Shown: positions 13,501 to 33,691 of the stretch, one piece after another
How the letters are laid out: every line of letters starts with the position of its first letter
How positions within the stretch are numbered: the first letter of the stretch is position 1
DNA from: Giardia intestinalis
Lineage: Eukaryota
Assembly (NCBI GenBank): GCA_000002435.2
Contig: CM018792.1
Reading direction: 5' to 3' (one strand)
DNA: 64,000 nt
Notes under the pieces: generated by a model
Told to the model about the DNA's origin: nothing
The model's database searches: none
What the model saw: only the letters and a program-made list of their open reading frames with translations
Translations under genes and position numbers: made by a program

Positions 13501-16500
13501 GACTAATGACCATCCTTTCAACGTATTGTATGATCTTCTGAATAAAAAACATGACGAACAGGACAATTTTCAGACCGTACTACTCAACTTTAAAGAAGAC
13601 TTGCTGAATTGCGGGCCCACAGTGAAGCATGGAGCGTGGATCTTACCTCCAATTTCTCCTCAGCTATCACAAGCCTCGCTTTCGCTTTTTCGGTTCTGTA
13701 TATCTACCTCCATACTTCACAAGCATAGGCGCCTAGAGTCTTTACTTAATGAGCATCGTTCGCTTTATACACGTCTTCATCAGTCCCACCTATGGACGTT
13801 GGTTCGAGAACAGTGTGTACAGGTCGATGCTTTATTCAAGAGTTATCTCTCCAATCCAGCTTTCATCTGGCAGACAACTGACACTATGGAGCAATTTCTG
13901 CAGGACCTCAGCGCTTCTATCCAGCTGCTTTCGTCGCAAACCCATACTCTATCTACTATCACTGCTAATCTTCGCAACAGCCTTATGAGCTATGCGCCAG
14001 CTTTAAAGAAGCGCATTAACTTGCCAATCACACAGCCCCTTGCACCTGTTTCAGAATTTCTAGCATCATCCCGCTCGTGGTCTAATGACCAACTACCAGA
14101 CAGCATTGTTGTGCATATTCTCAATGATATCTTGTCACAGGAGTCAGAACTAGGAGACACACCTAAGTATTTCATTCCAAAGTTTGCAGAGGTAATCCAG
14201 TATCATGAGTATTTGTCGTTTGGAAGCATGGTCCTGGCAGACACGGACTTATGCAATAATAATACTGACGGTGATGGCCTAAATCAACAAATCAGCTTGT
14301 TTATCAATACCTGCAACCAAATTGAAGAGCGTATCTACCTGTTTAAGAGATCTATTGAAAGCCAACTTGATTCTTACTGCAAAGAAGTAGAACTGCTACG
14401 CGCCTCTTCTGAGTTATCTGATGAGCTTTTGCTGGCACTGTTTAATGACCTATCTCTTACCTTGCACGAATTGGCTGTTGTGTGGATGCTTTATCTGTAT
14501 CTTCTCTCTTCACCTAAAACCCCCACCCTACTCCACGTTGCAACGACGCTCATTGGCGACAAGTTATATACAAGTCCCGCCTTAGGGTCACTTTCCGAGA
14601 TCCCCCAGGCGATAACAGACTTACTCTCACTGCTCTCCCTACATAAGACCATCGATCAGCAATCCATGACACCAGAGTTGCAAAATATTTATAGCTGGGC
14701 CGAAACGCTGATCCATGCAGATCCGCTATTACTTCGGCTATCTGAATCTATAGAAGACAGAGCTCTTACTGCAGTACTTCATACAGTCACCGGAAGGTTA
14801 GCTATATGGGTTATTAGCGTCATTCAAATTCCCCTCCTAATTGACCGAGTGCTAGAGAAGTTGCCCGAAATGAAGTCTTCGTTCCACAACTTATGCAGCA
14901 AATCGACACGGCCTGCTAGATTCGATTGCGAATACTCTGCCCTCAACCAATACCTTCCCCTCAATCTCCTTTTTTCGGACACAAGTATTGTTCATTATTA
15001 CAAATTTGATGGGCTTCTATTCCACATAGCAAAGCTATTATTTTTCTGTTACTCGAAAGGGTATGAGCAGTTTGATGGTATTACTTCCACAATCTCTGCT
15101 AGCCATGCCCAGCTTTCCAATTTGAAGCAATCAGAAGACATTGTACTAATGGACCTACATACACATCAGAGTGCCTCCCTATTTCTGGAGAACTTGCTCG
15201 GCTATCTGGGTGACATCTTGCACATACAAGCATCCATAGATCATATACCTAGTACTAAGCAATTTAATAGATTTTTTGCGGAGTTTTTGCGATTTAAGAC
15301 CTTTATCACGGAAAAGGAAAGCAGGATTAGTGTGATAACTTGCGGGTTGTACCTGCTTAGAAGCACAGGCCTTTCGGAGCCTCTTATTTCACAAGCATCC
15401 ACCATCGTGAAGGAGCTGTCTTCTCCAATTCTATTCAATCTTTATTCCATTTTAAATCTCTATCTAGACGCGCTGTCCAGGGTAGAGAAGGAGTGTTACA
15501 CGCATTTAAAGCATGCACTGGGCCAACTTGATGACTCCAGGTCTCTTATCATCGAATACCGTTACTATCCAGTTATCCCATCGACTCTGGAACCGGCAGC
15601 GCTGATAAGGACCGTTTATCTTCTGCGGAGTATCTTTAAAGTCGATGCCCTCAGGAAGCTTTACGAGCAGATTAATAATAGGAGTCAGGTTTTGATCCTT
15701 TACATGCAGAAGAACGGGATAGATATAGAGCCGGTCTTTAAACAATCCACTGAAAAGATCCTAGCTCTCCAAGGGGCGATAAACATTACCTATGAAAAGG
15801 TGAAGTATCTCGTTGATAGCACGCGAGCAAGCCTTCTGGCCTACACTGTGTCTGCTAATGATGCGCTGATGACGGCTCTACATGACTTCCTCAGTTTCAG
15901 GGCTCTTGATCATAGGGAATCGTTAAGCCTGGCACTCCAAAGTGCCATTAAGCAGAGAGCGTTGACAGGGGCACACGTCCGCAATCTATATGTACACGGT
16001 TCCCGGATCCTTCTCTTTCTAGAAGACTCCCTTGTACGCATCCGGCATGTCTACTCCAAGCTGTGTTACCACTATGAGCTGTGCTACCTTCAGGGAATAT
16101 ACGGTCCTGCTATCTTCGTAAAAACAGCGCACGATATGCTGGGCTTCATCAGGCGGAGTATTGAGGGCACTGAGTTTCCCAATTATCTACGCTTGATCGC
16201 CTCATACCAAGTTATCTGGGGACGACTTTGCCAAGTGGCTGACAGACTTCTATATTATGAGGACAAGCCAATAGCCTTGTTCTACGATAGCTACACGGAG
16301 ATAATGGCTTTGCTTAAGGACAGCTACACACTTCGAAGACAAGTCACCCTTGACAATGCAGTTTTTCTTGAATTCTTGAGCTGGTATGAAGATCTTCTGC
16401 ATATTCTTCAAGAAGAGCTTCTCTCCATTATCAATCTCAAAGATTTTACACCAGAGCAATGGCAGGACCTAATTTATCACATCGGGCATGTTACTCAAAG

Positions 16501-19500
16501 CTCTAAATGCATGGCCCTCTGCACTCTGGATAGCGAAACGCAGCTTACTCTTGGAAATGTCCTACTTCTCAAACTGAACACACACCCAGACATACTGAGA
16601 GGGAAGATATCTATGGCCTTGGTTAGCTCTGCCGTCTCAACCAAGGTTACGAATGCAATCTCACACTGGTCCGATCTTAATACCACAGATTTCATAGCGC
16701 TTGTCCGGGAGTTATCTGACATGATGGAATGCACTGGCTTGGAGCACTGTCTCTTCGCAAACTCTATTGTAAAAGGTAGAGCGGCAGATATTTATGTTGA
16801 ACAGTACTTTGATGCCCATGACCTTCTTTCCCTATCTATCATCCAGCGAAGCGCAGAAGAACTGGTACGAGGGATGCTACAATCTACATCACTAAAAGCT
16901 TCTCACACAGCACTTCTATTGGAACATCTTGAAACCTTCAGGGCTGTTGCAGATATGGAGTGTAGCGAGCGATCATTCCCTATGCTCACGTGCTGCCAGG
17001 TGTATCTGCGTACAATTTTAGATGTTGGGCTTGTGAGCGCGGTATTTGTTTCCACTCTGTCTCAGTTATATAATTTTTTAATAGCCTATTCGTATATAGG
17101 GCACGAAGATTGCTTAAACCCCTTTACTGCTTGGACACTCGAGGATGAGGTATCCAAGTGTTTAACCGTACTATTTCATATATTGTCAATACACAAGTAC
17201 ATACTTGAATTGTATGACAACAATCTGCAATTCAAACGATACCTATTATCAGATATGATCGAAGACAGCAGCAAAACTGTGGAGGATATAGAAGCTGTAC
17301 TAGCGTTTCTTCATGGACAGAAAGTGCTCCAGAAGAAGGACCGCTTTTCTGTTGAGAACTTCAATATATTCTGCGGACGTCTTACTAGCTACTTTGTGCC
17401 TATAAGGCTGTGTGCCTTTTCTATGCCCCTTTATCAGGCAGAAGAAGCTTTAAAACTTGAAGACCATACTTCATCGCCTTCCCAGGAACCATCCAACAAC
17501 TCTTCTTCCAAGACTTGCTTAAAAGATGTGTCGATTTATCCACTTATGATTCTACTATGTGTGGCGCTAAAGGCAGTTATGGTAACTATTATTGATTCTG
17601 TTAAGGATTCCTTACCACATCCATCTCTAGAGCAGTCTTCAGAGACTTCTTACATAACAGACTATGCAGTTACGGAAATCAGAAAGGCCATTATTCCTTA
17701 CAATCTCTTCTGCCTGTTTTCGAAGGGTCTTAATGTATGTGTCACACTTAATACCTTGTTATCCCTTTCAAAAATAGATCCTTTACTAAACGGGATTGTA
17801 TCTGGGGATCTCTCTTTTAGCAATCCCAACCACAAATTTTTTCTTCAAGCCTTATCAGAGGCTAGCGGATCTGAGTCTACTTCAGATGCAGCAGAAGCCG
17901 ATGTAAGTAACTGCTCCCTCTTCAGAACTGCTCTACTATCAACTTTCTGCAATCCCTTTCTTAAGAGACTGCTCGCCGGATATCAGAAGCTGATTACCAG
18001 CTCTGAGGATCAAAACATTATTATAGGCTATTGGTGCGACTTTCCCAGTGAGTCTCCGATGATCTTCTATCAACCTGTCAACCTTTGTGCTGTTAATAGA
18101 TGGATATGTACCTCTGAATGCTGCAATTTACATCCCTTATGGCTTGCGGTTATTTCTGTTTTTCATGCATACGAGGAAACCTTGCGCATAGGATCCTTGC
18201 TTGCCCTCCGTGAGCTTCGTGCACTATGCTCGCTATCTTTGTCGGTGGATCTTTGCACCAACCCATCAGCAAATGATGAAGATCACGCCAAGGGAGTCTA
18301 TCTTACTTACGGCTACTGTGACCTAGATGCGTATCAATACGAATTTGTTCCTTTTCAGGCCATGTATATCGGTGCGCGCTTGTTTTTGAGCACACTTTGT
18401 CTATTCCAACACGATTACACCGGGAGGGCCTCCATCATATCCTCAACAAGCAACGACTTTCTTATCTACATCTGTGCACTAGTACAGAAGCACATGTCTA
18501 TAATCACTGAATTGCCACTGCAATTGCTTATGCTTCAGAAGGAGGGTAACAGTGAGACGCAGCTGCTTACAAGACTCATTGACCTACCCTCTATGCAGTG
18601 GAAAAGTGCCATGCTATGGCTACTCTTTGAAGACTTCTGCGAAAAATTAAAGGCCTCAGAAACAACCCTTCAAGTGCTACGGGATAGAGCCCTTAGTGGA
18701 GGAAAGGCTTCCATAGACCCTGACTTCATCGCTAGGGATCTACTCCAGAAGCTGGTAAGCGATAATGTGCTCTTCTTGCAAATGGAGCTCAGCATCTTTC
18801 CGGGGCAGGCGATGTCTCTACTAAATAGCCTTGACATCTCTTTCAGTCCCTCAAAAGCAGCTTCTAGGGGTATCATGTACTGTGCTTCTTCATCTCCAAA
18901 CGGGGTTGTTATCGCCAGATCGTTGTTTGCCCAGATTGCATCATCCATACCCAGTTTACCGATGATAGACTTAATTAGAGTTTACTCTCCAACTTTATCA
19001 GTAACACGAAGTTATCTGAATGGTCTGTTGACCGCAGCTTCTTGCCAAAGCATGCTATTGTATGGGCTTCAGTTCATTTCACTAGTTCGTTCAATTTTTC
19101 AGACAATTCTTTTCTCTGATGAATCTCAAGTGCATAGAAAGCAGTCAGTCCAGTTCTTCGTCGCTCACCAAGCACAGCAAGTACTCACGGAGATTGCGTC
19201 CGTGCTATGCTTTTCCAACACACAAAACAAGCAGCCAAGTGCCTCAGTGTTATCCGCATGTAGCCATGAAGCTGTTACTCAAAGATATTCACTGATTCTT
19301 GTCCCAATTGATTCCAAGTGGGAAACTTTTCAACGACAAGATCTCGCTGTCTGCGGATCTGATCAAAGTTTCAATCGAAATGTCTCAGTAGATAAGCAGT
19401 CGGATCAGTCGCACATATACAGAGCGTGTGTGGAGATAGCAAACCTAATCAGGGATCCATCTAACGGAAAGGTGACTTGCAGAAATTTGGAACGTGCTCT

Positions 19501-22500
19501 TGCTAAATTTTTATATCATCTACTTGCTGGAACAACCATTGAATCAGCAGAGAAATTTCTTTATTTATCTATAGACGAACTGCTGCGGACCTTGGCACCA
19601 CTGTCCTTGATAGGAATTAGACGGGTTGCAGAACATAATACTATGTCAGTACTATTTGATTCCAAGGTGTTTATGATGCATGCACAAAGTATTCTTCAGC
19701 AGATGGTGTCTATGGACCTTGATGAGCGGCTTCTCCAGTGTATGGACCCGCTGCTTGACTGGCTGGTTCAACTGGTGATGCGGCTTAGGTATCTATTCAT
19801 TGTGGCAAGTCCCCTCAACGCTGTTGTACTCTGTGGGCCAGTCTTTTCCTATGTCCACGTCCTTCCGTGGATTTTCTTTCGAGCTCTTAAATCCTCTGGC
19901 TTTCCAACTTGTTATTCCTCCGAGCAATCTGAGCACCTATCCAAGGAAGCACAAGACTATGCATTTTTATCCATTCATTCTCTAAGGTTATCATCTGATA
20001 GATCTATCAGGGAAGTGATTTCCCTTTATGCTTCAGAGCAACCCTGTTACAGAACTATTCTTATGTTGACAACAGAAAGTCTTACTGATGAACAAAGAGA
20101 CATCTGCCATCGTTATGGAATTCCGATTCTTAACACAGCAAGGCCCATTGCTGACGCAAATGACTTTAAGCATTTAGAGCTTCTCTCCCTCTATACAAAC
20201 CTCCATGCTTGGTGCTGCCCAATATATCCAAGAATAAATGGCACTTGGAGCTTCACTCCTTCGCCATTCTCGTTAATATCAATGCGCCACGATACAAGTT
20301 CAGCTTTGGAGTCACAAGCAGAGCTAAAAGAAGTGCAGCAGCAAGACCCAGAGTCTATGACGGAATCGTCGGAGCGCCTTCAGAGTATGTATTTGAGTAT
20401 TAATCATCAGAGGAAGCTCCTTGCCCCCCGAATAGTCCACTCCTTTATAGAATTGTCTGGAGTGTATAGAGATCTTGTTGAAAAGGCTGTATCATCAACC
20501 GCGCTTTGCACGTATTATCGTTACCACGCTATAACTGGCGCCTTGTCTATCGTGTTGGCCATACTTGACACGCTTCTGATGGACCCATGCATTAGGGTTA
20601 ATATTTTGAGATTGGAAACAAAGTACTTTCATGCCATTGTTGTGTTCTCGTGTAGCTGGGCCTACGCTGCCTTGCCAATAAAGTCCCATCGTAATGTAGA
20701 TCTTAAATCTGACTGTGCTAGTGCACCAGCTAGTCAAGCCGAGAGTTTCCTATATGTAGATTCATCTATCCGCAAAAAATCGCCCCTTCTTCTCAAAACT
20801 GTGCCTCGCACCCTGCACACCAGGCAAGCGGTCATCGACTCTGCTCAGATTTCATGGCCTGTGTTTCTTAGCAACGCCTTAGGCTCCCTTGTGCTGACTA
20901 AGATAGGATGTCATGCCTCAAACATATATGATTTTGTACCGGCTGTTCGGGTAGAAAACAAAGTGATTGTCGATGCTCTGGTCACCACATCTCTCTGTTT
21001 GGAGCACAGATCTTGGCCCGAACTGGCCCAGACTCCCAGGGCATTAGTTCCACAAATCGTGGTGACACTATGTCAACTTTATGCAGGGGAAAGGCTTCTT
21101 TCCGCTGACGCTGGCCTATCGCACATTGAATTCTCTGCTCTAAGTGCACACATATCTCACTTCTATTCCCTCGGGGTGTATAGCCTTCCTGCACAGCGCT
21201 GTCTCGGGATTCTTAGTAATGTCTTTATCATACCTGGTGCTCAGCCAGTACGTAGAACAGCTACGCCAGAGAGTAACTCCAAGCGTCGGCTTACACCTCT
21301 TCAAATCGTGCATTGTGCCTTCTATCCACTTAGTCGAGATCCAACTAGCAAAGCTGGAGATGCTACGAACCTTACATTACGCTCTGGCGACCCAGAGTTC
21401 TGCCCCCTTGTTGTGGCTGCAATACCCATCTTTCTAACGCCTTCATCTCAGCAACACAAGGCATACTCTTACGCTAAGACATCAAGTCAGATTCTATATA
21501 TCTTTGATCACCATCCCCCTAGGCAACACATACAGAGACTTCACCACCCCGCGTCCATGGTTCTACTCCAAGACACATACCCCGGTTCGCAACAAGCAGA
21601 TTCACGGTTTACATTTATGACCCCGCGGATCAACTCGACTGTGCATACTCTAGTATTTCAACTTTTCCAGCCATTAGCTAGCACCTTACCTCTTTCTTGT
21701 GATCAGGATGCCTACATTATCCTGATTCAGCTTACTCTTCAGGCAATTCAGGATTACCGAGGGCCTGCAGAACATCATCACTCTCTCAATACTATGCTAG
21801 AAATATTGGCTCCTGTTCAGTCGTTGTTGGAAGGCTTTGTCCTCAACGAGAAAATAACCCGGAACGTATACCGGTCATTAGCGCATGAAGAGCTAGTTTC
21901 GACAAGCGAGCCTCTTCTCACGCCCAGTCTTGCTATTTTTGCATGGCTTCTTTCCACTGTCGACTTTTATACATCATGCTTCTCTAAATCATTCTATGAT
22001 AGTCCAGAACGCAGCAGTTTCAGTGAGCTGAAAGACTTCTATGGAAGCCTACTCTCTCTGGCCTCATTCAAGGCTAGCAAGGTTGCAAGTACAGATGCAG
22101 ACCCTGGGACCTTCCTTAGCAGCTCTGTAAAGTCTTTTGGCACCATGGAGCTTCTAGAGTTCTACGAGACGTACCCTCTGTTTGCTATTTCGCTCGGACA
22201 CACCAATCTTTTTCTACCGCTAAGGTTACGGAATATATCCACCTTTCCCATAAGAACTGGCTCCAACACAATGACTGGTATCTTGTCCAACTTCGCGGCA
22301 CATGCCCAGAAGCTTGAAGAAGTGGTTACACATTCGGTACCCCCGCTAGATTCTTCAATGTTCTTACGTCTCCTCGGTCTCCAAAAGTATCAACAATTTC
22401 TTCTGGCAAACAACACATCATTGCCTCTTCCCTGTCCCGTAACTAAATCATCTGAACAGGCAGAGTCATCCACTTCAATTGATGTAGGAACAATTTGCAC

Positions 22501-25500
22501 AACAGCTATCCAATGCATTAACTTTAGAATACTGTGTGATCTATTTTCAAATATACATAAGATCCTGCACTCCACTCCTTTGGATCCGCTGGATGGCAAC
22601 TACATATACTACTCACATATCTCTATGCCTGCATTTAGAGTCGGGGTTCTTCTTCGTAATCTTTCTCTTTTCCCCGTTACACGTGCAGAAGGCGTCTCAT
22701 CAATCCTTGTCAACTCTCACCTAAGGCTCTCTCGATTCATTCTCACAGAACCAGGACACTCTCTTAGGGACACACTGGCATATGCTTGCAATTTGCGGGG
22801 GCTAATATACCCACTCGAAGTTGTTGGCATACAGAGTACGGAGCAGGGCATCTTGCTGGAGATTGCGCAAACACTATCGCTAGGCTATATGCTGGTTGCG
22901 TGGATGCGAAAGCCTGTCTGCATATACATCTCTTCGTATGCGGTTCGAAATGCTAAGATTCTTGCGTCATTGGTTTCACTCCTATGTTACGGGTACTCTC
23001 CAGAAATCATGAGCACATTAACGACAATAGAGCAATACGCATTAACTCGAAAGATTCTTGGATTACTCTATGACCCATCTTATGGTCCAGAAAGATCGAA
23101 CAGTGCAATACTCAAAGACTTTAGCAGCATTGTTGATGGCCCTCTCGAACGCATAGGCATCCTTCAAATTTCTGAGGACAGTAGTCCATCACTTGTCAAG
23201 GCTATACGTGCATCTGGTCTCCGGCGCTTTCTAAGTCTTGTTGCGTTGGCTCACTTCTCAATTCCGCCAGCCTCTTCACGTGGACGAGATCCAAATCAGA
23301 ACTACACGTCACAATTGAAACTAAAACGGACAGGGGATCCTCCTATTTCAGTTCTGAACACATTGCCAGAGCTTCTGTGCTCCCCCATTGATGTTCTTTC
23401 AACAACTTCGGCAGACGTATCCCTGTCCTCCCTTTTGCATGTCTATGTGGACGTTCCCATATACTCTGATGTTCATTTGTTTCTGAAAATGGCTCACTAT
23501 AATCACATATATACCAGTAATTTGGTCTTTGCTATGCCCCCAGCTACAGAGTTCGGCCTTGTCGAACATACCCTTCGCAGAGAGCTGAGTATGGAGACTC
23601 CAGCCCTTCTTCAAGATATACTAGACGACCAGGAGTGTCTAAAGCTAGCTAAAGTATATACACACATAATCACTTATCTATCTAAAGTAGTGGATAAACG
23701 TTTATTGTTCTACTACACATCCTACTCAACTTGCGTAGAATTTGGTAAAGTTTTCAAGTCTCTGCTCTACCATAGGAGGCACACATTTACTGTTCGTCAG
23801 AAGCACTACGATCTTGCACTCACCAATCTTCGACTTGTCCATGAAAACTCTGAGCAGGCCTTAGAATCTTGCAGACGAGCATCCGCAGAGATCCAAGCAC
23901 ACTCACTTGCATTTCAAAACACTAACTTTGAGCTATCACATTTAGAAGAGGAGATTTCGGTAGTCAAACAGCGACTGTGCGTTAGAACTAATGATAAGAG
24001 GTATGCAGAAGAGACACTGAAAGAGGCATCTGAACTTCAGAATCAGTACAAGAAACAGATAGTAGTATTTCATAGACAAATGGATAGGATCTCCGATTAT
24101 CAAAATTCAGTCAATCCCATTTTATTTGCTGCAGGCTGGCAGACGCATAAACGCTTTCAGGAGTGCCTTTCTATGGCCTGCCTACACTTAGCTGCATGTA
24201 CCTCCAAGAAAGTCTCAGTTTTCGCGCTCTCAGTACCGAAGAAGGGGGCGTCAAAGCATACATCGAAAGAGATAGAGCCATCTCTGGATACATTCAAGCG
24301 GCGCGTTAGCAATATTGATGTGTTTATCAAGGAGATGATTGCACCCTCTCCCGAGGAAATAGTCAACTCTCCGCACTATCAGCTTATTAAGGACTATCTT
24401 CTGGATGCCATAGAAAGTATTTCCGGCTATAGACATACCGCCTCAACATATCTCGTGCCAATCGAACATGTCAAGGTGGAGAAGGGGGCCCAGAGTGACC
24501 TTGCTGTTCTCCCCAAAGAAATATCGACACGTCTTCCACCATTCTATACAAAAGAGAAGGCACGTTATGTTCCATCAACCATGGATCTTTTAAGGGCCTC
24601 TGTCGAAGTGCGAAGTGTCCACGTGATTGCTGATATGCTTTTCTGGATCCTCCTTTTCCAGATGGAGCTTAGTACCATGTGGATTAATGGCGCCGAGTAC
24701 AGAACGGTTATTTCTGATCAGGAAACTGCTATTTCAAACTGCGCAAATGATATTGACAGCCTGGAGCGTCAACTGGCTGCCTTTGAGTCTCGTCTTCTCT
24801 TGGGGCAAGAGCGCAAGCAGAATCTTAATGCAGAGCTAACCAACTTACGCAATAAGTATGCAGAGTCCAAAGATATGTTGTCAACAACCAGCAGCATTTT
24901 AAGCAGCATCAGCGACTTGAGACAGGCTTGGCTTGGAACTAGTGCAGACCTGAAGCTGAAATTAGACAACATTATGGGAGATAGTATTGTCATCGCCACA
25001 GCATATACCATGCTACTCCATGTCAACTCATCAACCCGGTGCAAGCACCTGGCAGGCATAGCAAGTCTCTTGGCAGACACATATGGATACACCATTTCTC
25101 CTGTTTGGACCGAGAAGGGCCTCTCTGATAGCTGCATCACTAACATGACCCTTTCAAGTAACGAACTCATGCAAATACAATACGCTGCTTTAACGTCTCA
25201 CTTCTTTGCCCCACAGGTGCCTCTTTATGAGCGTGATCTGAATATAATTCTAAGCAACACTAGCGTAGAGGTGTCTGGGGACATCAATGTGTCAGAGGAC
25301 GAGTGGCTGGGCCTAATCAACTGTTTCGGATCACTAACAGAAATCGAAGCAGACATACTCCGCCATGGAAGCACACTTATACACGAGACCTTTGTTTTCT
25401 ACGTGACTGCACTGCTATTTGGTCACCGTAACACAGCAATTCTTGTCACAGATCAGACAAGATCCCAGGGGAGGCTCCTCTCAGAAATCGTTTCTAAGGT

Positions 25501-26434
25501 AAGCATATTCCACGCATCTAGCAAAGGCTGTACACGCCCAATATTTTTGCAAACTCTCGCCGATTGTCAAAGATTGTACTCTGTAATCCAGCACTGTATC
25601 GTAGATAGTATGAGCACATTAGAGAACCAAGTCCGTGCACACGAGGACGCGATTGCTTCTATCGCTGCATCCTTGCGTGCCGATGCTATTACATCGGACA
25701 GCCCACTTGAAACGCTTGAGACCAGCTCTGTTGTTTTTCCAGTAGCCGTAGACACTACTTTTATGCATCAAACGTCTATGCACGATCTCTTATTGGGAGC
25801 ATTCCAAGTGTCTACCAGTGACAAGGGGAACATCTACAAATATGCTATTAATCGCCAATCATCATGTGTAGAAGCACTCTACAGCAAACCAGGCACACTG
25901 ACAGCGCACAGCCCCCTGAGGTTGTTTCTGACATCCCTCCACGACAAGCAGGACGTTGTTCTTTCCATCGCGAACAACCAGCTCCTGTCATTCTGTTCAC
26001 TAATAGATTTAGAGCCCGTTGGGTACCGTGCCCCTGAGATCTCGGAATCAGCTCCTACAGTCAAGGTGGTCTTACAGAGACCTGTCTCGGACTTCACTTA
26101 TCTTGATTACACCAGCAATCTTATCACAGTGGAAAAGCCGGTGGTCTCGATGTATCGTGTAGACTCAGAGCGTATCTATCAGGAGGTGTCTCTCTGTGGG
26201 TATGTCCTTTCCATTGTTGATGAAGCTATAGTTGACTTTATGTGCACCTTACAATCCAATGCCGACGTCCTTAATACCTTGACCAACAAAATGCTCCAAC
26301 TGGTGTTATCGCCCAATAAGGTGCCGTTTCTTGAAGCCATCGCCGAGGTCCACCAGCAAATGAAGATCGTCACTGCCATGGTCATCCGCCTCAAGAAGTG
26401 TCTCTTCTTGAAAATCCACATGCCTAGAAGGTGA
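10592..26434 (+). CDS. Giant hypothetical protein (5281 aa), Leu/Ser-rich and probably alpha-helical, with coiled-coil segments near the C-terminus
   Basis: A single uninterrupted ORF of about 15.8 kb. The first in-frame ATG is at 10592 (the track start at 10568 is a TTG). I could not recognise a P-loop, kinase, FATC or any other motif. Every antisense ORF within it is shorter than 135 aa. Confidence 0.7.
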   Translation: MLPAAHAAEDLLLLLQHPAERRITALPGYSCVTALGRHSSSEVVFCSEEEGQVTFTPERPAPPFSFLFYKSQDAAPAVLLGCSSCQEQTSLLSTILIIFTAVYKQSARFQTQQLYPLYEQFYRLLRLDPLLVQSSVLVDLLEHSPHIDLPAALDAPLVYRYEMGVRHYFSNILHLWALEASNLLSFSQGPRVYDGPSTNTKCAYGTPEYSVFVPRIKSFIDSMRKHIKLTGFSYTDCFNLIILEKLAQMPSLFSFILTGSQKHSHLLSIKRYIDQALDDKTSVFHKMICILAKSNSHSVGEFNRLSYFSQKQAGALKSALQLAIALLPYVLVIHRVSTSYYHIVHSDIQEELSLDLLSDAFFTAICNRLTESKEPAAYDLIAYSLGSDITLAVQHAIGPDHLFATNILLYRRNLGSALRFLDRLGSVLPESPKLTTRISQLRLRCQDLLDLSMWQYQYNTALGIIKTSVYEFPPSLLTILEETVKTIQLFIPDSYSTSETEPTSNFTYALTLLPTEGAFDWLPFLLQGLGSEHVVSAWPKNLVNSSSLDKLSGSGSYYPICGRYKPTNTTEQSCQRAVKAAIQGGRPTPTSRSTSGRKKPILRLTLDVDDLQASNTIGSSLSVSSFSHVAEAPVKSITRREKSMFKYNHPKRKLVTKSLTLATLFKHNFQVMQSIIHRADFNCIHSISVGLQRLAPSLVPTFEGGREIQSATPPILPLHLGRHIIAVRTLLERQAIFAALSPLLLQFILASISFLFYIKRNVLKSFFNIIHLDQYYPCVLFIEHHYKHCVILAYMVCCFGTVLLRFVAWKATESPLLSTVTEEFLSRVTSHGLLDVMLYLSSQLLELLRVSLPTRTHCRLGDYPYKHIASLSQKLPCPEFLTFLWLFDQVFAALKAMRDDCYQAWSSALNQTAEKLHDIMTSVPISVASQAGNLVSYSIGNIDPLPNFIRSCHLYQVSTASQMFSSSDEGTNDHPFNVLYDLLNKKHDEQDNFQTVLLNFKEDLLNCGPTVKHGAWILPPISPQLSQASLSLFRFCISTSILHKHRRLESLLNEHRSLYTRLHQSHLWTLVREQCVQVDALFKSYLSNPAFIWQTTDTMEQFLQDLSASIQLLSSQTHTLSTITANLRNSLMSYAPALKKRINLPITQPLAPVSEFLASSRSWSNDQLPDSIVVHILNDILSQESELGDTPKYFIPKFAEVIQYHEYLSFGSMVLADTDLCNNNTDGDGLNQQISLFINTCNQIEERIYLFKRSIESQLDSYCKEVELLRASSELSDELLLALFNDLSLTLHELAVVWMLYLYLLSSPKTPTLLHVATTLIGDKLYTSPALGSLSEIPQAITDLLSLLSLHKTIDQQSMTPELQNIYSWAETLIHADPLLLRLSESIEDRALTAVLHTVTGRLAIWVISVIQIPLLIDRVLEKLPEMKSSFHNLCSKSTRPARFDCEYSALNQYLPLNLLFSDTSIVHYYKFDGLLFHIAKLLFFCYSKGYEQFDGITSTISASHAQLSNLKQSEDIVLMDLHTHQSASLFLENLLGYLGDILHIQASIDHIPSTKQFNRFFAEFLRFKTFITEKESRISVITCGLYLLRSTGLSEPLISQASTIVKELSSPILFNLYSILNLYLDALSRVEKECYTHLKHALGQLDDSRSLIIEYRYYPVIPSTLEPAALIRTVYLLRSIFKVDALRKLYEQINNRSQVLILYMQKNGIDIEPVFKQSTEKILALQGAINITYEKVKYLVDSTRASLLAYTVSANDALMTALHDFLSFRALDHRESLSLALQSAIKQRALTGAHVRNLYVHGSRILLFLEDSLVRIRHVYSKLCYHYELCYLQGIYGPAIFVKTAHDMLGFIRRSIEGTEFPNYLRLIASYQVIWGRLCQVADRLLYYEDKPIALFYDSYTEIMALLKDSYTLRRQVTLDNAVFLEFLSWYEDLLHILQEELLSIINLKDFTPEQWQDLIYHIGHVTQSSKCMALCTLDSETQLTLGNVLLLKLNTHPDILRGKISMALVSSAVSTKVTNAISHWSDLNTTDFIALVRELSDMMECTGLEHCLFANSIVKGRAADIYVEQYFDAHDLLSLSIIQRSAEELVRGMLQSTSLKASHTALLLEHLETFRAVADMECSERSFPMLTCCQVYLRTILDVGLVSAVFVSTLSQLYNFLIAYSYIGHEDCLNPFTAWTLEDEVSKCLTVLFHILSIHKYILELYDNNLQFKRYLLSDMIEDSSKTVEDIEAVLAFLHGQKVLQKKDRFSVENFNIFCGRLTSYFVPIRLCAFSMPLYQAEEALKLEDHTSSPSQEPSNNSSSKTCLKDVSIYPLMILLCVALKAVMVTIIDSVKDSLPHPSLEQSSETSYITDYAVTEIRKAIIPYNLFCLFSKGLNVCVTLNTLLSLSKIDPLLNGIVSGDLSFSNPNHKFFLQALSEASGSESTSDAAEADVSNCSLFRTALLSTFCNPFLKRLLAGYQKLITSSEDQNIIIGYWCDFPSESPMIFYQPVNLCAVNRWICTSECCNLHPLWLAVISVFHAYEETLRIGSLLALRELRALCSLSLSVDLCTNPSANDEDHAKGVYLTYGYCDLDAYQYEFVPFQAMYIGARLFLSTLCLFQHDYTGRASIISSTSNDFLIYICALVQKHMSIITELPLQLLMLQKEGNSETQLLTRLIDLPSMQWKSAMLWLLFEDFCEKLKASETTLQVLRDRALSGGKASIDPDFIARDLLQKLVSDNVLFLQMELSIFPGQAMSLLNSLDISFSPSKAASRGIMYCASSSPNGVVIARSLFAQIASSIPSLPMIDLIRVYSPTLSVTRSYLNGLLTAASCQSMLLYGLQFISLVRSIFQTILFSDESQVHRKQSVQFFVAHQAQQVLTEIASVLCFSNTQNKQPSASVLSACSHEAVTQRYSLILVPIDSKWETFQRQDLAVCGSDQSFNRNVSVDKQSDQSHIYRACVEIANLIRDPSNGKVTCRNLERALAKFLYHLLAGTTIESAEKFLYLSIDELLRTLAPLSLIGIRRVAEHNTMSVLFDSKVFMMHAQSILQQMVSMDLDERLLQCMDPLLDWLVQLVMRLRYLFIVASPLNAVVLCGPVFSYVHVLPWIFFRALKSSGFPTCYSSEQSEHLSKEAQDYAFLSIHSLRLSSDRSIREVISLYASEQPCYRTILMLTTESLTDEQRDICHRYGIPILNTARPIADANDFKHLELLSLYTNLHAWCCPIYPRINGTWSFTPSPFSLISMRHDTSSALESQAELKEVQQQDPESMTESSERLQSMYLSINHQRKLLAPRIVHSFIELSGVYRDLVEKAVSSTALCTYYRYHAITGALSIVLAILDTLLMDPCIRVNILRLETKYFHAIVVFSCSWAYAALPIKSHRNVDLKSDCASAPASQAESFLYVDSSIRKKSPLLLKTVPRTLHTRQAVIDSAQISWPVFLSNALGSLVLTKIGCHASNIYDFVPAVRVENKVIVDALVTTSLCLEHRSWPELAQTPRALVPQIVVTLCQLYAGERLLSADAGLSHIEFSALSAHISHFYSLGVYSLPAQRCLGILSNVFIIPGAQPVRRTATPESNSKRRLTPLQIVHCAFYPLSRDPTSKAGDATNLTLRSGDPEFCPLVVAAIPIFLTPSSQQHKAYSYAKTSSQILYIFDHHPPRQHIQRLHHPASMVLLQDTYPGSQQADSRFTFMTPRINSTVHTLVFQLFQPLASTLPLSCDQDAYIILIQLTLQAIQDYRGPAEHHHSLNTMLEILAPVQSLLEGFVLNEKITRNVYRSLAHEELVSTSEPLLTPSLAIFAWLLSTVDFYTSCFSKSFYDSPERSSFSELKDFYGSLLSLASFKASKVASTDADPGTFLSSSVKSFGTMELLEFYETYPLFAISLGHTNLFLPLRLRNISTFPIRTGSNTMTGILSNFAAHAQKLEEVVTHSVPPLDSSMFLRLLGLQKYQQFLLANNTSLPLPCPVTKSSEQAESSTSIDVGTICTTAIQCINFRILCDLFSNIHKILHSTPLDPLDGNYIYYSHISMPAFRVGVLLRNLSLFPVTRAEGVSSILVNSHLRLSRFILTEPGHSLRDTLAYACNLRGLIYPLEVVGIQSTEQGILLEIAQTLSLGYMLVAWMRKPVCIYISSYAVRNAKILASLVSLLCYGYSPEIMSTLTTIEQYALTRKILGLLYDPSYGPERSNSAILKDFSSIVDGPLERIGILQISEDSSPSLVKAIRASGLRRFLSLVALAHFSIPPASSRGRDPNQNYTSQLKLKRTGDPPISVLNTLPELLCSPIDVLSTTSADVSLSSLLHVYVDVPIYSDVHLFLKMAHYNHIYTSNLVFAMPPATEFGLVEHTLRRELSMETPALLQDILDDQECLKLAKVYTHIITYLSKVVDKRLLFYYTSYSTCVEFGKVFKSLLYHRRHTFTVRQKHYDLALTNLRLVHENSEQALESCRRASAEIQAHSLAFQNTNFELSHLEEEISVVKQRLCVRTNDKRYAEETLKEASELQNQYKKQIVVFHRQMDRISDYQNSVNPILFAAGWQTHKRFQECLSMACLHLAACTSKKVSVFALSVPKKGASKHTSKEIEPSLDTFKRRVSNIDVFIKEMIAPSPEEIVNSPHYQLIKDYLLDAIESISGYRHTASTYLVPIEHVKVEKGAQSDLAVLPKEISTRLPPFYTKEKARYVPSTMDLLRASVEVRSVHVIADMLFWILLFQMELSTMWINGAEYRTVISDQETAISNCANDIDSLERQLAAFESRLLLGQERKQNLNAELTNLRNKYAESKDMLSTTSSILSSISDLRQAWLGTSADLKLKLDNIMGDSIVIATAYTMLLHVNSSTRCKHLAGIASLLADTYGYTISPVWTEKGLSDSCITNMTLSSNELMQIQYAALTSHFFAPQVPLYERDLNIILSNTSVEVSGDINVSEDEWLGLINCFGSLTEIEADILRHGSTLIHETFVFYVTALLFGHRNTAILVTDQTRSQGRLLSEIVSKVSIFHASSKGCTRPIFLQTLADCQRLYSVIQHCIVDSMSTLENQVRAHEDAIASIAASLRADAITSDSPLETLETSSVVFPVAVDTTFMHQTSMHDLLLGAFQVSTSDKGNIYKYAINRQSSCVEALYSKPGTLTAHSPLRLFLTSLHDKQDVVLSIANNQLLSFCSLIDLEPVGYRAPEISESAPTVKVVLQRPVSDFTYLDYTSNLITVEKPVVSMYRVDSERIYQEVSLCGYVLSIVDEAIVDFMCTLQSNADVLNTLTNKMLQLVLSPNKVPFLEAIAEVHQQMKIVTAMVIRLKKCLFLKIHMPRR

Positions 26435-29291: not shown

Positions 29292-29310
29292 TAGTGCATA
29301 CTACATTTAC

Positions 29311-30687
29311 TTAGGTCCTGAGAGGAACCTCCCATATGGAATTGCAGGACCACATGACTGCGTCCCGGACAGCGTCAGAATCTATGTTCTGGATTGCCTC
29401 ACTCATTTCTTTGAGTAAATTGTCCGTGTCCGAAGACTGTTGCTGAGCATCCAGAGCCTGGACTGCGGCGGTCATCTGGGGCGTGAGGTACTCTAGTGGT
29501 GATAAATCTGCAAGCGCTCTATGTCCTGTAACTACATAGCCTCGCTGCTGTAGAGCCATATCTGCCGTAACGGTCAATGGAACATCGTCAAATATTACGA
29601 AGATAACGTCTGGCCACTCGGCAAAGTGTGCAAGCATCGCTGCAATCCATTGATCGATTGCAACCGGGCCAGGTTTTCCAATCAGAAACTGGTTGAAAAT
29701 CATTGGTTTTTCTAATTCAATTGGTGGAGCTCTATTAAGCCCTGTGACAGTGGCTATCTCTGGGCCTTGCCTGGTATAATTCGGAGGGAATCCCGCGATG
29801 GCTGTCAAAGCAGTCAACTTCGTGATTGACTTTCGTGAAAAGGAGTGCTTAGAGCGTAGCGACACCCCGTACTGTCTGTAAGGCCCAAAGTGCCATTCTG
29901 ACACGTTGATGTAGATAAGTAAGCGTGAGTAGTCGTCGCTGATGAGAATGTCTTTCGATGAAAGAAAATCGGTGGCGTCCTTCAGGGCATGGTTCAGGCT
30001 ACGGAAGAACGAGAGGCGCTCTTGTCGGGACAAGCTTCTCGCCCCTGCCGCGCTATTTTGTCGGGCACGACTTAGTTTAAGAGGAATACGAACGTTAAAG
30101 GCGGGCACATCGCGACGCCGAAGAGCACGGCTGATTGTCGGAACGGAGATTGGCCTCTGCGCAGCCGCCAAGGCCTGTGATGCCTCCATTATTGTGCCAC
30201 CAGGTTTCTGCAATGTCTCCATAATTATTCTGCCAGCTTCGTCGTTGATCATAGGACGTCTGCCACGCGTCTTTGGCTGAGTAATGTCGTCACCCTTTCG
30301 CAACCGCCAGAGGAGGGATCGGACACTAGAACTCTTGATGTTGCACTTCTTTGCATACCAGTCGAAAGGCTGCTGCTCATGGTATTGGGTCCAGAGCTCG
30401 ACCAGCTGTTTCTTTGCAGAAATGGTTATTGTGGCCCTACCCGCATCGGCTCGACGCTTCCGTGGAGACGCCTCTACTGCCGTGCTAGCTGTCGGCACCG
30501 GGGGTGGAGACGTCCCAATGGACTCCATCGGGATGGAGAAGAGGAGGTCTTGCGCTACTTGGCATTGGATGCCCAGCGGCGATTCACCAAGAGAAATGGA
30601 AAGCATGTCCTCCCTTAGGGCGTCTGACTGCAGGGCAGGCTGGTTCGAGGCATGGGCCGTTTTATTTCTCTTTAAGCGATCGTCCAT
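29311..30687 (-). CDS. Tc1/mariner-superfamily (IS630-Tc1-mariner) DDE transposase-like protein. It appears intact at 458 aa.
   Basis: The architecture matches C. elegans Tc1A. There is a bipartite paired-like HTH: ISAKKQLVELWTQ...NIKSSSVRSLLWRLRKG, then KTRGRRPMINDEAGRIIMETLQ...ISVPTISRALRRR (compare the Tc1A GRGRK...VSTTTISRRLRE). The first Asp sits in ILISDDYSRLLI (compare VLFSDESNFELF). The second Asp sits in VIFVIFDDVPLTVTA (compare FQQDNAPCHTA). The Glu sits in GYVVTGHRALADLSPLEYL (compare WPSMSPDLNPIENLW). The spacing from the second Asp to the Glu is about 31 residues. The ATG is real. Confidence 0.6.
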   Translation of the reverse strand: MDDRLKRNKTAHASNQPALQSDALREDMLSISLGESPLGIQCQVAQDLLFSIPMESIGTSPPPVPTASTAVEASPRKRRADAGRATITISAKKQLVELWTQYHEQQPFDWYAKKCNIKSSSVRSLLWRLRKGDDITQPKTRGRRPMINDEAGRIIMETLQKPGGTIMEASQALAAAQRPISVPTISRALRRRDVPAFNVRIPLKLSRARQNSAAGARSLSRQERLSFFRSLNHALKDATDFLSSKDILISDDYSRLLIYINVSEWHFGPYRQYGVSLRSKHSFSRKSITKLTALTAIAGFPPNYTRQGPEIATVTGLNRAPPIELEKPMIFNQFLIGKPGPVAIDQWIAAMLAHFAEWPDVIFVIFDDVPLTVTADMALQQRGYVVTGHRALADLSPLEYLTPQMTAAVQALDAQQQSSDTDNLLKEMSEAIQNIDSDAVRDAVMWSCNSIWEVPLRT

Positions 30688-30789
30688 CTGTTGTTAAATA
30701 TGAACAATGTGTTGGCAATTTAGGCCTGCACACTGTCCAAAATTTTAAGTCCATTAAATGTTATATTTACATACAATTTGAAAACAGGT

Positions 30790-33165
30790 CTAATTATTTT
30801 GAGACCAGCTCTTTGCAATCTTACGTAGCTCATCTATAGACGAAAGGACCCCCGGCTTCAGCCCAGCCAGGCGTTGCGTGAAGCGAGAGGGAGTATAAAA
30901 ATCGTCCGAAATCAACACGCAATCGAAGTCTCCAAGCGCAGGAGTCCAATAGGCTGAGTTGAACGGACTGGGCTCTGGGATTGCCGAGTCGCCCGTTGCG
31001 CGGTAGGCAGCGCTGACGTCCCCTGGCGTAACGCCACCAATCATATAGATGTAGACCTTCTCTCTGCTGCGATAGGAGCTTATCTCATGCTTTTCTAAAT
31101 AGGTCTGGAGCTCTTTGCCCTCTGGAGACTCTGGATAGTACTTTGCCGCCGCGTTGGACACATTGGAAACAAGCACGTCGCGCTTAACAGGCGCCCCACG
31201 TCGCCTACGCTCTACCATGGCCAGACTCTGGTTCTCTGCCACAGGGAAGAGACTCTCGGCTGTCTGTGACAGAGGGCTATCGTTGAACGAGCGGAAGATA
31301 CACTCGAGGGCGGGGAGGTATCGGGACTCCTCGATTGCTTTGCTTAGAACACCCTTATGAACTGGACTCTTCTTCATCGCTTGCCACAAGTGAATAAAGT
31401 CATACGTAACAAAGGTCTGCAGGAACCCAGTCCACAATGCCCGAAAGTCAGCATCCTCATCCAGCCGCCAGAGCCGCGAAACGTTATAGTTAAGGTTGAT
31501 CAAATCGCGGAGAGGCCTCCCGTAAATAGATTCAGAGAGGCCCCTATCTGTTTGACCAGACTTCTCCAGTATTAGAACAGTGTACATGTAGAGACGAAGG
31601 GCAACTGTGGAGTCCGTGCTCGGGGATGACAGTGTCTGAAGGATCTCTGTAATAGAGACTTTCTCTGGGCCAACTGCTATAGAATCCAGGTCAGAGATGC
31701 GGTCTCCGTTGATCAGAATGTCAAGCAGGGTAGACTCTGCTGCTAGAAGGAGCGGGAGGTACCCCTTGGCCTCTATTTCATCTGCAAACTTCTTAATAAT
31801 AGTGAAGACACCATTCATTTGAGCGCTCAGCGTCATATATGGCACGTTGAAGATGGAAGAATCCACCAGGCTATATGACGGGATCTTCATCACTCGACCT
31901 GCGTGGCGCCCGTAGTTGACGGGTATTTCTTTGGGCTTAGTCATCATGGTAACTGAGTCTCTATCCAAAGGGTCAAAGCTCCGGAACACCTTGATAATAT
32001 CCTTCTGCCACACAAGAAAGTTGGCCATGCTCATGAACCTGAAGCCGTTCCAAACGTCCGATGATTCAGAGAGATCTATCTCAATCAAATTCGCAGCCTT
32101 TTTCTGAGACTTTGCAATCTTAGCGTCGTTTGGGCTGCACGGCTGGCCAGTTGCGGCATCTGCTAAGTATAAGTCATCATTGATATCTAACATGTCAGGC
32201 AGGAAGGAGCCGACGAGTGTGTGGTGAGCAACAAGGGAAATAGGGTCAAACGCCCTGTCTACTATGATTATTGTGCTGTTAACACACGGATAGCTATTGT
32301 TATACGGTGCAACTGGGGTAAGTTGCAGCTTCTTGTTTAGGGCCTCGGCGATCTCCTTGCAAAGCGAAAAGTGCGACTCTCGTGCAACTCCTTTATAGTA
32401 GCGTACCTCTGGTGGACCCATTTCTAGGGAATTAAATAAAGACCACAGCTTTTCGACTGTAGTGGAGATGTATTGCTTCTTAATAGCCTGATACGTATCT
32501 GCATTAAACTTGTGCATGCCATAAGCTATCAGAAATGCTTCTGGCTGGTTGAGATTGATAAACCTGTTCCACCTAACGGTGAAGTCGACATTGAAGCTCA
32601 TGACACCTGCCTTAGAGAGCAAGTCTACGAGCCCAGACGACTTCACAAAGTTCTCTGCATCGGCTGAAAGCGGACCAGGTGTGAGTATGAACAGACCCTT
32701 GTACTTATACGGAAATTGGACCTTAGAGCCTGAGGGGCCACAGCATCCCTTCTTAGCCTGCTTTGCTTCCGCAACACTTGCGCTGAACGACGACACATGG
32801 GTGCTTCCATTGACGCCCCAGCCAAAGTCCCGCGCTACCATCTCCATCGCCTCTAGGGTCGTAGAGACCATATACACCCCAAACATGGCTGGCTGTGGAG
32901 TGCGGGTCTTTTCCAAAGAATCCTTCAGAACAAGGCGATACTCCGTTAAGATCGAGGTAGTGAAAAGAGACCCGATAATAGGTAACGTATAGCTATCTAG
33001 GATCAAAATACCGTAGATGTTATTCTTCTTGAGGAAACTTGCAATCTTCTCAAAGTAATGTATGATCAGATAATCTCTCAAGAGAGGGCGGATCTGTTGT
33101 GGATATTGACAAAAGAAGCGAAAGATCGGATGTTCATTCGGGCCTGAGATCACCTCGGCACTCAT
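30790..33165 (-). CDS. Sec1/Munc18 (SM) family vesicle-fusion regulator (about 791 aa from the first ATG)
   Basis: The N-terminal SM signature is YGILILDSYTLPIIGSLFTTSILTEYRLVLKDSLEKTRTPQPAMFGVYMVSTTLEAMEMVARDF. This matches the family pattern vLvlD..t..ils.....L...gv.lve.l...R.p.p...AvYfi.Pt.eni..l..Df. The C-terminal signature is KVYIYMIGGVTPGDVSAAYRA, matching the vFviGGvTysEi pattern. The track start at 33333 is not an ATG. The first ATG is MSAEVISGP at 33165-33163, which also avoids a 150-bp overlap with ADAT2. Confidence 0.7.
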   Translation of the reverse strand: MSAEVISGPNEHPIFRFFCQYPQQIRPLLRDYLIIHYFEKIASFLKKNNIYGILILDSYTLPIIGSLFTTSILTEYRLVLKDSLEKTRTPQPAMFGVYMVSTTLEAMEMVARDFGWGVNGSTHVSSFSASVAEAKQAKKGCCGPSGSKVQFPYKYKGLFILTPGPLSADAENFVKSSGLVDLLSKAGVMSFNVDFTVRWNRFINLNQPEAFLIAYGMHKFNADTYQAIKKQYISTTVEKLWSLFNSLEMGPPEVRYYKGVARESHFSLCKEIAEALNKKLQLTPVAPYNNSYPCVNSTIIIVDRAFDPISLVAHHTLVGSFLPDMLDINDDLYLADAATGQPCSPNDAKIAKSQKKAANLIEIDLSESSDVWNGFRFMSMANFLVWQKDIIKVFRSFDPLDRDSVTMMTKPKEIPVNYGRHAGRVMKIPSYSLVDSSIFNVPYMTLSAQMNGVFTIIKKFADEIEAKGYLPLLLAAESTLLDILINGDRISDLDSIAVGPEKVSITEILQTLSSPSTDSTVALRLYMYTVLILEKSGQTDRGLSESIYGRPLRDLINLNYNVSRLWRLDEDADFRALWTGFLQTFVTYDFIHLWQAMKKSPVHKGVLSKAIEESRYLPALECIFRSFNDSPLSQTAESLFPVAENQSLAMVERRRRGAPVKRDVLVSNVSNAAAKYYPESPEGKELQTYLEKHEISSYRSREKVYIYMIGGVTPGDVSAAYRATGDSAIPEPSPFNSAYWTPALGDFDCVLISDDFYTPSRFTQRLAGLKPGVLSSIDELRKIAKSWSQNN

Positions 33166-33181
33166 TTTTTGTTTTGACGAA
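33166..33181. promoter_or_regulatory. A 16-bp AT-rich bidirectional inter-ATG spacer (ttttttgttttgacga) between the divergent SM-family and ADAT2 genes
   Basis: The two start codons are only 16 bp apart on opposite strands. The spacer is a T-rich run, which fits the very short AT-rich initiator promoters of diplomonads. Confidence 0.4.
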
Positions 33182-33691
33182 ATGGAAGAGTGTTTTAAGG
33201 AAGCGAGCCTTGCACTCGCAGAGCGTGAGGTTCCCGTCGGATGCGCCATCGTTGACAGTGCTGGCCGCATACTTGCTACAGGGAGAAACGCAACTAACAA
33301 GACGCGTAACTCCACGCACCATGCAGAGATCATGGCATTGGCTCAGTTACCATCTGGCACAGATCTTTCTGACTGTGTGCTCTATGTAACCATCGAACCC
33401 TGCATTATGTGTGCTGCTGCCCTCTCAATTGTGGGCCTAACAAACATTATTTACTTCGCCCGCAACAGCAAGTTCGGTGGCTGTGGCTCGGTACTAGATG
33501 TAAATAACCACACAGCACGTCCGTGGACAAAGCTGAATGCCAAGTATGTACCTGACGAGCGTGCAATCCACTTGCTGCAGGAGTTCTTTGAAAGGAAGAA
33601 CCCTGTGACAGCAGCATCAGACCACGGCATAGATGAATTAGATTATTGTTTGGACAGGGAACCCCGATTGAAAAATCAAAGTACAATTTAG
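33182..33691 (+). CDS. ADAT2: tRNA-specific adenosine deaminase (Tad2/ADAT2, CDA fold)
   Basis: The sequence EVPVGCAIVD...GRN...HAEIMAL...LYVTIEPCIMCAAAL...YFARNSKFGGCGS carries the HAE and PCxxC zinc-binding signature. It matches the TadA/ADAT2 family end to end. Confidence 0.85.
   Translation: MEECFKEASLALAEREVPVGCAIVDSAGRILATGRNATNKTRNSTHHAEIMALAQLPSGTDLSDCVLYVTIEPCIMCAAALSIVGLTNIIYFARNSKFGGCGSVLDVNNHTARPWTKLNAKYVPDERAIHLLQEFFERKNPVTAASDHGIDELDYCLDREPRLKNQSTI

Follow-up and report, generated by a model that had tools for sequence, protein, structure and literature searches.

We analysed a 64-kb window (the whole stretch of DNA under study) of Giardia duodenalis assemblage A, WB, with the focus on GL50803_3211, which is probably a domesticated (exapted) Tc1-like transposase gene of the IS630/Tc1/mariner (ITm) superfamily, DDE_3 type. 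The list of open reading frames (ORFs) of the window contains it as the minus-strand, ATG-to-stop frame of 458 amino acids (aa), closed by TAA, that a first-pass annotation made from the sequence had described as a transposase gene (Table 1). Its product is 100% identical to the NCBI entry "hypothetical protein GL50803_003211 [Giardia duodenalis]", located on a contig of 2.76 Mb, and the guanine plus cytosine (GC) content over the gene (0.48-0.52) is unremarkable for the region. The flank lengths given in that annotation, 19 bp on the 3′ side and 102 bp on the 5′ side, are exact. The 5′ flank separates the ATG from the stop codon of a minus-strand Sec1-family gene, and CATATTTAACAACAG directly precedes the ATG and is conserved in four Giardia lineages. 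Giardia promoters are short and AT-rich, and a promoter role of these 102 bp is presumed. On the other side, the stop codon together with the following GTAAAT reads AGTAAAT, which fits the Giardia polyadenylation consensus AGTRAAY, and each of the four lineages has GTAAA in its 3′ flank. This 3′ flank is too short for a terminal inverted repeat (TIR) of the Tc1 type.

Orthologues of 459 aa, with 84, 80 and 77% identity, were found in assemblage B (P0002) and in two further Giardia lineages (P0003 and P0004). The order of the genes is the same in the four lineages (L7Ae, a 607-aa protein, dCMP deaminase, Sec1, GL50803_3211, a protein of ~700 aa and a proteasome subunit), and the same neighbourhood was observed in 24 of the 24 assemblies read for the exact WB protein. 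No orthologue outside these four lineages was detected either by phmmer among 1.84 billion representatives or by a scan of metagenome contigs for more divergent orthologues. In addition, the search for paralogues in libraries of 5.8 and 1.84 billion proteins yielded one orthologous cluster lineage and no paralogue, and no second copy of the gene exists inside the window.

No credible inverted repeat brackets GL50803_3211, in agreement with what had been reported before. A single pair (I23, 12 nt, 83% complementary) has its arms in the two flanks, one in each; it was rejected as a TIR for being short and AT-rich and for lying in flanks with conserved host-type sequence, and a further inverted pair (I1, 29 nt, 76%) was discarded for lying inside both neighbouring coding sequences. 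As a positive control, the search that failed at GL50803_3211 was applied to a relative from Monocercomonoides exilis described below; the TIRs of ~110 nt were recovered around it, and therefore the inverted-repeat method works. Element ends are undefinable without TIRs, and therefore a TA duplication is not assignable at the Giardia gene.

Nei-Gojobori counts were obtained across the four Giardia lineages. The proportion of nonsynonymous differences (pN) in GL50803_3211 was 0.08-0.12 and that of synonymous differences (pS) 0.62-0.73, with a pN/pS ratio of 0.13-0.17; the Jukes-Cantor-corrected ratio of nonsynonymous to synonymous substitutions (dN/dS) was about 0.05-0.07, a value that is approximate, dS being near saturation. 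The pN/pS ratios of the neighbours were 0.10-0.14 for the Sec1-family gene, 0.10-0.15 for the 607-aa protein, 0.10-0.14 for the ~700-aa protein and about 0.04 for the proteasome subunit. By region, pN was lowest in the helix-turn-helix (HTH) part and highest in the N-terminal residues 1-83, and the core was also constrained. These data indicate that purifying selection acts on GL50803_3211 as on an ordinary Giardia gene, and that it does so in each of the three protein regions.

Conventional domain searches of the protein gave little. The Pfam scan returned no DDE_3, Transposase_1 or HTH_Tnp match, its sole match being HTH_32 (residues 137-189, E=0.044, far below the gathering score), the NCBIfam scan returned no match, and a single-sequence phmmer search against PDB gave chance matches only (peptidyl-tRNA hydrolase, E about 2). 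The absence of such Pfam matches was precisely what the first-pass annotation had named as evidence against its transposase call. Nonetheless, profile-profile searches recover the homology, and the Pfam and NCBIfam scans are uninformative for so diverged a protein and do not show non-homology; a test by Pfam alone would wrongly have dismissed a true remote relationship. The exhaustive phmmer search (1.84 billion representatives) retrieved, besides the Giardia cluster, seven weak matches over residues ~57-266 (E=2e-6 to 8.5e-4), four of which are bona fide PF13358 DDE_3 transposases of 368-482 aa. These four share with the Giardia protein the N-terminal motif WYA..GI....R.LL.KLRKGEDI...K.RGRKP.

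Alignments were then compared as profiles: the four Giardia orthologues (A1), the four transposases (A2) and an independent, transposase-only set of 22 members (A5). In hhalign, A1 matched A2 with 99.6% probability (E=1.9e-23, 321 columns, residues 83-453) and A5 with 99.4% (E=5.8e-22, 322 columns). Pairwise BLASTP alignments reached up to 398 residues, covering residues 62-452 against P0006 (E=1e-13) and residues 88-456 against P0024 of M. exilis; the E value against P0025, also of M. exilis, was 1e-11, and the closest family overall gave 1e-11 to 4.5e-13. Against solved structures, the combined profile matched Mos1 (E=1.9e-6), SB100X (1.4e-3) and, more weakly, SETMAR (E about 0.3-0.5). For the word-indexed family search the transposase-only alignment A2 was effective, whereas the mixed alignment A3 returned a single non-Giardia protein. 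Altogether, these sequence comparisons indicate that GL50803_3211 is a full-length, very diverged homologue of IS630/Tc1/mariner transposases of the Pfam DDE_3 type, and the original assignment to the Tc1/mariner superfamily is upheld by hhalign, BLASTP, profile and Foldseek results alike.

A structure model was obtained with AlphaFold from an alignment of 29 sequences (A4; 25 transposases and the four Giardia orthologues). Its mean predicted local distance difference test (pLDDT) score was 69, with values of ~90 in the HTH bundles and of 80-91 in most core elements, whereas the model built from the four Giardia sequences alone was unusable (pLDDT 36). The best PDB match of the model in Foldseek was full-length Mos1 (E=2.9e-8, probability 1.00), followed by the SETMAR transposase domain and the Pax5 paired domain, the latter matching the N-terminal HTH region over 118 columns with probability 1.00. 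The two paired-like HTH sub-domains proposed earlier are thus present, as three-helix bundles (residues 89-130 and 149-191, pLDDT about 90) connected by a basic linker of the GRPR type, RGRRP. The first of them contains the family motif WYA..x..I....R.LL.rLRKGdDI, aligned with that of the transposases, and the phmmer matches fall here; the sub-threshold HTH_32 match overlies the second. By analogy with Tc1, Sleeping Beauty and Pax, the RGRRP linker would bind in the minor groove. Residues 1-83 are modelled with low confidence and are probably disordered; the hhalign match to transposases begins at residue 83-84. The basic RKRR patch at residues 76-79 is a candidate nuclear localisation signal. 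The C-terminal part corresponds to an RNase-H-like core homologous to DDE_3/Transposase_1, interrupted or preceded by two Giardia-specific insertions (Table 1).

The active site of this core is degraded. The family-invariant hhYIDE(T/S)xW motif aligns with LLIYINVSEW of the Giardia protein in two hhalign runs, two MAFFT alignments and BLASTP, so that N261 occupies the position homologous to the first catalytic Asp. The residue at this position is N, N, N and S in the four Giardia lineages (S in P0004) and is not conserved within the genus. The DNAxxH that follows the second Asp is degraded to DDVPLT, and the NPIE of the transposases has become SPLE. The signature thus reads D-E, D-N..H and N-P-I-E in the 25 active transposases vs N/S-V/T/I, D-D..T and S-P-L-E in Giardia, with three of the nine invariant residues kept and six lost, and the protein has no complete D-D-E/D triad. 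Of the three catalytic positions claimed at first, D367 and E399 hold, both being aligned with their counterparts in the homologues, and the proposed first Asp (D251 or D252) does not: four concordant alignments put both residues in a Giardia-only insertion of 16 residues with modelled pLDDT below 50, and they were rejected as the first catalytic Asp. They are invariant in the four Giardia lineages despite being inside the insertion. The distance from the second Asp to the Glu (31 intervening residues, as previously stated, vs 32-34 in most relatives) was borne out by the spacing table and the alignments. The first two positions are separated by 105-106 residues in Giardia vs 79-86 in the family, because the second insertion, of ~28 aa, lengthens the core. 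With its first Asp replaced by N261 or S and its signature degraded, the gene is therefore not the "apparently intact" transposase gene it had been taken for.

Table 1. Position of GL50803_3211, its flanks and the segments and residues of its product in the 64-kb window.
Feature	Position	Strand	Evidence and remarks
GL50803_3211 coding sequence, transposase-derived gene, 458 aa + TAA	29311..30687	minus	ORF list; 100% NCBI match; orthologues 77-84% identical, frame undisrupted
Upstream intergenic region, 102 bp	30688..30789	minus	Presumed short Giardia promoter and 3′ end of Sec1-family gene; not a TIR
Downstream intergenic region, 19 bp	29292..29310	minus	Ends at stop of 723-aa plus-strand ORF
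Residues 1-83, N-terminal low-confidence region	30439..30687	minus	pLDDT 32-41; highest pN of the three regions; outside hhalign match
Residues 76-79, RKRR basic patch	30451..30462	minus	R76, K77, R78 and R79 invariant in four lineages; aligns with K/R-rich position just upstream of transposase HTH1
Residues 88-131, first HTH sub-domain, PAI-like	30295..30426	minus	Helices 89-105, 108-115 and 119-130, pLDDT ~91-94
Residues 141-145, RGRRP, GRPR-like basic linker between HTH sub-domains	30253..30267	minus	Invariant in Giardia lineages; aligns with transposase KRGRKP
Residues 148-192, second HTH sub-domain, RED-like	30112..30246	minus	Helices 149-159, 166-175 and 182-191, pLDDT 85-93
Residues 238-253, Giardia-specific 16-residue insertion with D251/D252	29929..29976	minus	Gap in 25/25 transposases, in hhalign and in BLASTP; residues 246-252 pLDDT <50
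Residues 254-457, RNase-H-like DDE_3-type core, active site degraded	29317..29928	minus	
N261, codon AAC, position homologous to first catalytic Asp (lost)	29905..29907	minus	Asp in 25/25 transposases; same pairing in hhalign and BLASTP
Residues 300-327, second Giardia-specific insertion, ~28 aa, in core	29707..29790	minus	Gap in all transposases; residues 304-322 pLDDT <50
D367, codon GAC, second catalytic Asp (retained)	29587..29589	minus	Invariant in 29/29 aligned sequences; hhalign D-to-D pairing
E399, codon GAG, catalytic Glu (retained)	29491..29493	minus	P397 and E399 invariant in 29/29; hhalign pairing

The named members of the family retrieved by the search belong to M. exilis (P0024, P0025 and P0029) and to Blastocystis sp. 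(P0028), and the M. exilis proteins P0024 and P0025 are annotated as "putative transposase / DDE superfamily endonuclease". Other members (P0005-P0007 and more) lie mostly on metagenome or SRA contigs of 1-3 kb, as expected of repeated elements. M. exilis is an oxymonad and shares the phylum Metamonada with Giardia. In this organism, a Tc1-like element of ~2.15 kb (L006, LSRY02000048.1, 1386-3534) encodes an intact DDE_3 transposase of 420 aa and is bounded by TIRs of ~110 nt (40 nt at 100% and 76 nt at 96%); both of its termini are TA|CAGTCTGTCCC (TA|CAGT), a textbook Tc1/mariner end. This element is apparently a recently active copy. The M. exilis genome reportedly consists of DNA transposons to 4.5% (PMC8767320). 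The proteins of M. exilis, Blastocystis and the metagenome and SRA contigs, the family closest in sequence, resemble that of Giardia in having an N-terminal tail, a first HTH with WYA...LRKG.DI, an RGR(K/R)P linker, a second HTH, a linker helix and a DDE_3 core. Unlike it, they keep D-E, D-N..H and N-P-I-E as well as a C-terminal [RK/E][ED]DL motif. In comparison with this active family, TIRs are gone from the Giardia gene, which is fixed and single-copy, and its protein no longer has the first Asp, the C-terminal motif or most of the signature residues and contains two acquired insertions (16 and ~28 aa). The suggestion that the gene might represent a family still undescribed in this lineage is correct only insofar as the ancestral active family can be seen at present in other protists (Monocercomonoides and Blastocystis), with no mobile copies seen in Giardia.

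Two further features of the relatives were observed. Their C-termini are mostly [K/R/E][E/D]DL-COOH (EKDL, REDL, KKDL), with few exceptions (DDI, ESI, EDV, ENL, or wholly different ends), and to our knowledge no role of this motif is known in Tc1/mariner transposases. In three proteins from metagenome contigs of 2.5-3.5 kb (P0022, P0023 and P0026), an N-terminal ubiquitin C-terminal hydrolase domain (PF00443) is fused in frame to the HTH-DDE_3 part, which is unusual.

Of the origins considered in the first-pass annotation, a domesticated transposase is the one in line with these results, because the gene occupies a single fixed syntenic locus in four lineages and 24 assemblies, is under purifying selection, and has neither TIRs nor a paralogue; we regard this interpretation as likely. 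We propose that a Tc1-like element of the ITm superfamily inserted in the ancestor of the G. duodenalis complex, and that its source lineage would survive as the canonical mobile elements of M. exilis, Blastocystis and metagenome eukaryotes. The inserted element would have lost its TIRs, and its transposase gene would have been kept as an ordinary single-copy host gene with expression signals of the Giardia type. The present protein would no longer cut and paste DNA. Its bipartite HTH with the RGRRP linker, the best-conserved part, may act as a sequence-specific nuclear DNA-binding protein, that is, a transcription or chromatin factor, and the RNase-H-like core may have been retained for a role in structure, dimerisation or interaction, as in domesticated Tc1/mariner/pogo proteins. 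On the basis of sequence and of analogy with such proteins, GL50803_3211 is predicted to be probably a catalytically disabled nuclear DNA-binding protein.

Three other origins of the gene are effectively excluded. That it is an active or recently active autonomous Tc1/mariner copy, with TIRs too diverged or short to be recognised or overlapping the neighbouring genes, would agree with an uninterrupted ORF of typical transposase length and with the weak I23 pair in its flanks. However, the gene has the same position and neighbours in four lineages with nearly saturated synonymous sites and in 24 assemblies, which contradicts the earlier idea of a copy whose TIRs have diverged; furthermore, no paralogues were found in the protein libraries or the window, conserved signals of host type, and no TIRs, occupy the flanks, the first catalytic Asp has been replaced, and the TIRs of active relatives are easily detected, making this origin very improbable. 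The possibility that the protein is not derived from a transposase at all, but is a Giardia-specific HTH protein whose DDE resemblance is due to chance or to a generic HTH, draws on the lack of Pfam and NCBIfam transposase matches beyond HTH_32, on the empty phmmer search against PDB, and on the restriction of the phmmer matches with transposases to the N-terminal third; with hhalign and BLASTP alignments extending over the core, it is hardly credible. An equally remote chance is given to a decaying relic, a dead transposase left open by chance or weakly constrained and devoid of host function. Degraded active-site motifs, two lineage-specific insertions and the lack of any recorded function or publication for the GL50803_3211 gene ID could be read in this way, but the ORF is intact over 458-459 codons in four lineages at a pS at which neutral sequence would have gained stops and frameshifts, and its pN/pS equals that of neighbouring bona fide genes.

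More weight was given to a domesticated protein that is still catalytic, a host nuclease or recombinase nicking or cleaving specific host DNA sites with D367, E399 and either a replacement carboxylate (D251 or D252) or an N-D-E site, although we consider it unlikely. The four acidic residues are invariant in the four lineages, and the core is under purifying selection comparable to that of the HTH part. Moreover, KDILISDD looks like the motif of a hydrophobic strand with an acidic residue after it, and in the shallow AlphaFold run (pLDDT 36) residues 247-249 form a short strand. On the other hand, the alignments place D251 and D252 ~10 residues ahead of the homologous position, the model from the deep alignment gives their loop a pLDDT below 50, the homologous position itself varies within Giardia (N or S), and none of the partner residues (E262, N368, H372 and N396) has been kept. 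DDE enzymes are inactivated when the first carboxylate is changed from Asp to Asn, as by D64N in HIV integrase. In its more specific form, in which the invariant insertion KDILISDD(Y) supplies the missing carboxylate (D251 or D252) and GL50803_3211 works as a re-engineered, active DDE nuclease or recombinase in some programmed DNA transaction, this proposal is decidedly improbable. If it were true, possible roles would be recombination between the two nuclei, rearrangement of subtelomeric or variant-specific surface protein (VSP) loci, or repair, and the protein would be a protist counterpart of domesticated transposases of the RAG1, PiggyMac and Kat1 type.

Several points weigh against a domesticated and catalytically disabled DNA-binding protein. 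D367 and E399 are retained and invariant, as are the inserted D251 and D252, SETMAR keeps partial activity with a DDN triad, and GL50803_3211 may have residual or re-engineered metal-dependent nuclease activity. The constraint on the core is nearly equal to that on the HTH part, which fits a structural and an enzymatic role alike, and the dN/dS values on which purifying selection is gauged are approximate. The fold match offers corroboration that depends in part on the sequence homology, transposases being included in the folding alignment. In addition, the single-copy state is based on protein databases, the window and assembly contexts, not on a whole-genome DNA search, and expression, nuclear localisation and DNA binding of the protein are predictions.

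Domesticated relatives of the superfamily are known, and the Giardia protein differs from each of them. CENP-B, the fission-yeast proteins Abp1, Cbh1 and Cbh2, other pogo-derived proteins and Pax are cases in which the DNA-binding domain of a Tc1/mariner/pogo transposase, either alone or together with an inactive core, was turned into a host chromatin or transcription factor. CENP-B, Abp1, Cbh1 and Cbh2 belong to the pogo branch (Pfam DDE_1) and Pax keeps the DNA-binding domain only, their sequence relation to the Giardia protein being at the superfamily level. SETMAR/Metnase, the primate domesticated Hsmar1, comes from the mariner branch (DD34D, Pfam Transposase_1), whereas the Giardia protein falls in the Tc1/IS630-like DDE_3 branch; SETMAR is mutated in the third residue of the triad (DDD to DDN) and fused to a SET methyltransferase domain, whereas the Giardia protein is mutated in the first and is unfused. 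For SETMAR, many TIR binding sites of Hsmar1 and MiHsmar1 persist in the genome, and no TIR relics are known for the Giardia protein. Compared with Tc1, Sleeping Beauty and Mos1, which are multicopy, with complete triads, TIRs and TA duplications, the Giardia gene has no complete triad, TIRs or multiple copies, and the sequence identity is 11-14%.

Transposase domestication is well established in many eukaryotes, and the case described here would involve no new kind of biology. The recognised mobilome of Giardia consists of three families of non-LTR (long terminal repeat) retrotransposons (PMC10999387). Our literature search returned no report of a DNA transposon, a transposase-derived gene or a domesticated transposase in Giardia, nor of GL50803_3211. 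If the domesticated origin is correct, a "hypothetical protein" devoid of Pfam domains gains an evolutionary identity and a useful annotation, and the gene would be a molecular fossil, and the first trace in the history of Giardia, of a Tc1-like DNA transposon that invaded this lineage and whose family is still mobile in the metamonad Monocercomonoides and the gut stramenopile Blastocystis. It would also provide a candidate sequence-specific DNA-binding protein for an organism in which strikingly few transcription and chromatin factors are known.

Other observations were made along the window. The Sec1-family ORF upstream of GL50803_3211 (30790-33333, minus strand) has 847 aa from its first ATG but is called with 783-791 aa in assemblage A assemblies and the remaining lineages (L001, L002, L005 and L009), and its true start is probably a downstream ATG. 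At the left end, which it runs off, an open frame for a cysteine-rich product of at least 582 aa (3-1748, minus strand) matches the Pfam VSP family of Giardia variant-specific surface proteins (E=7e-57). Between this VSP gene and a tRNA gene, the segment 1750-10450 (~8.7 kb) has no ORF of at least 150 aa in any frame, which is unusual for a compact genome. No tandem repeats and no Rfam family were found in it, nor any Pfam match in its ten longest stop-free segments. Its GC content is 0.50-0.545 vs 0.44-0.47 in the next 16 kb; decay of an element or pseudogenisation of an array may account for the segment. The tRNA gene (10455-10528, minus strand; Rfam RF00005, 66.6 bits) lies directly upstream of an ORF of 5288 aa at 10568-26434.

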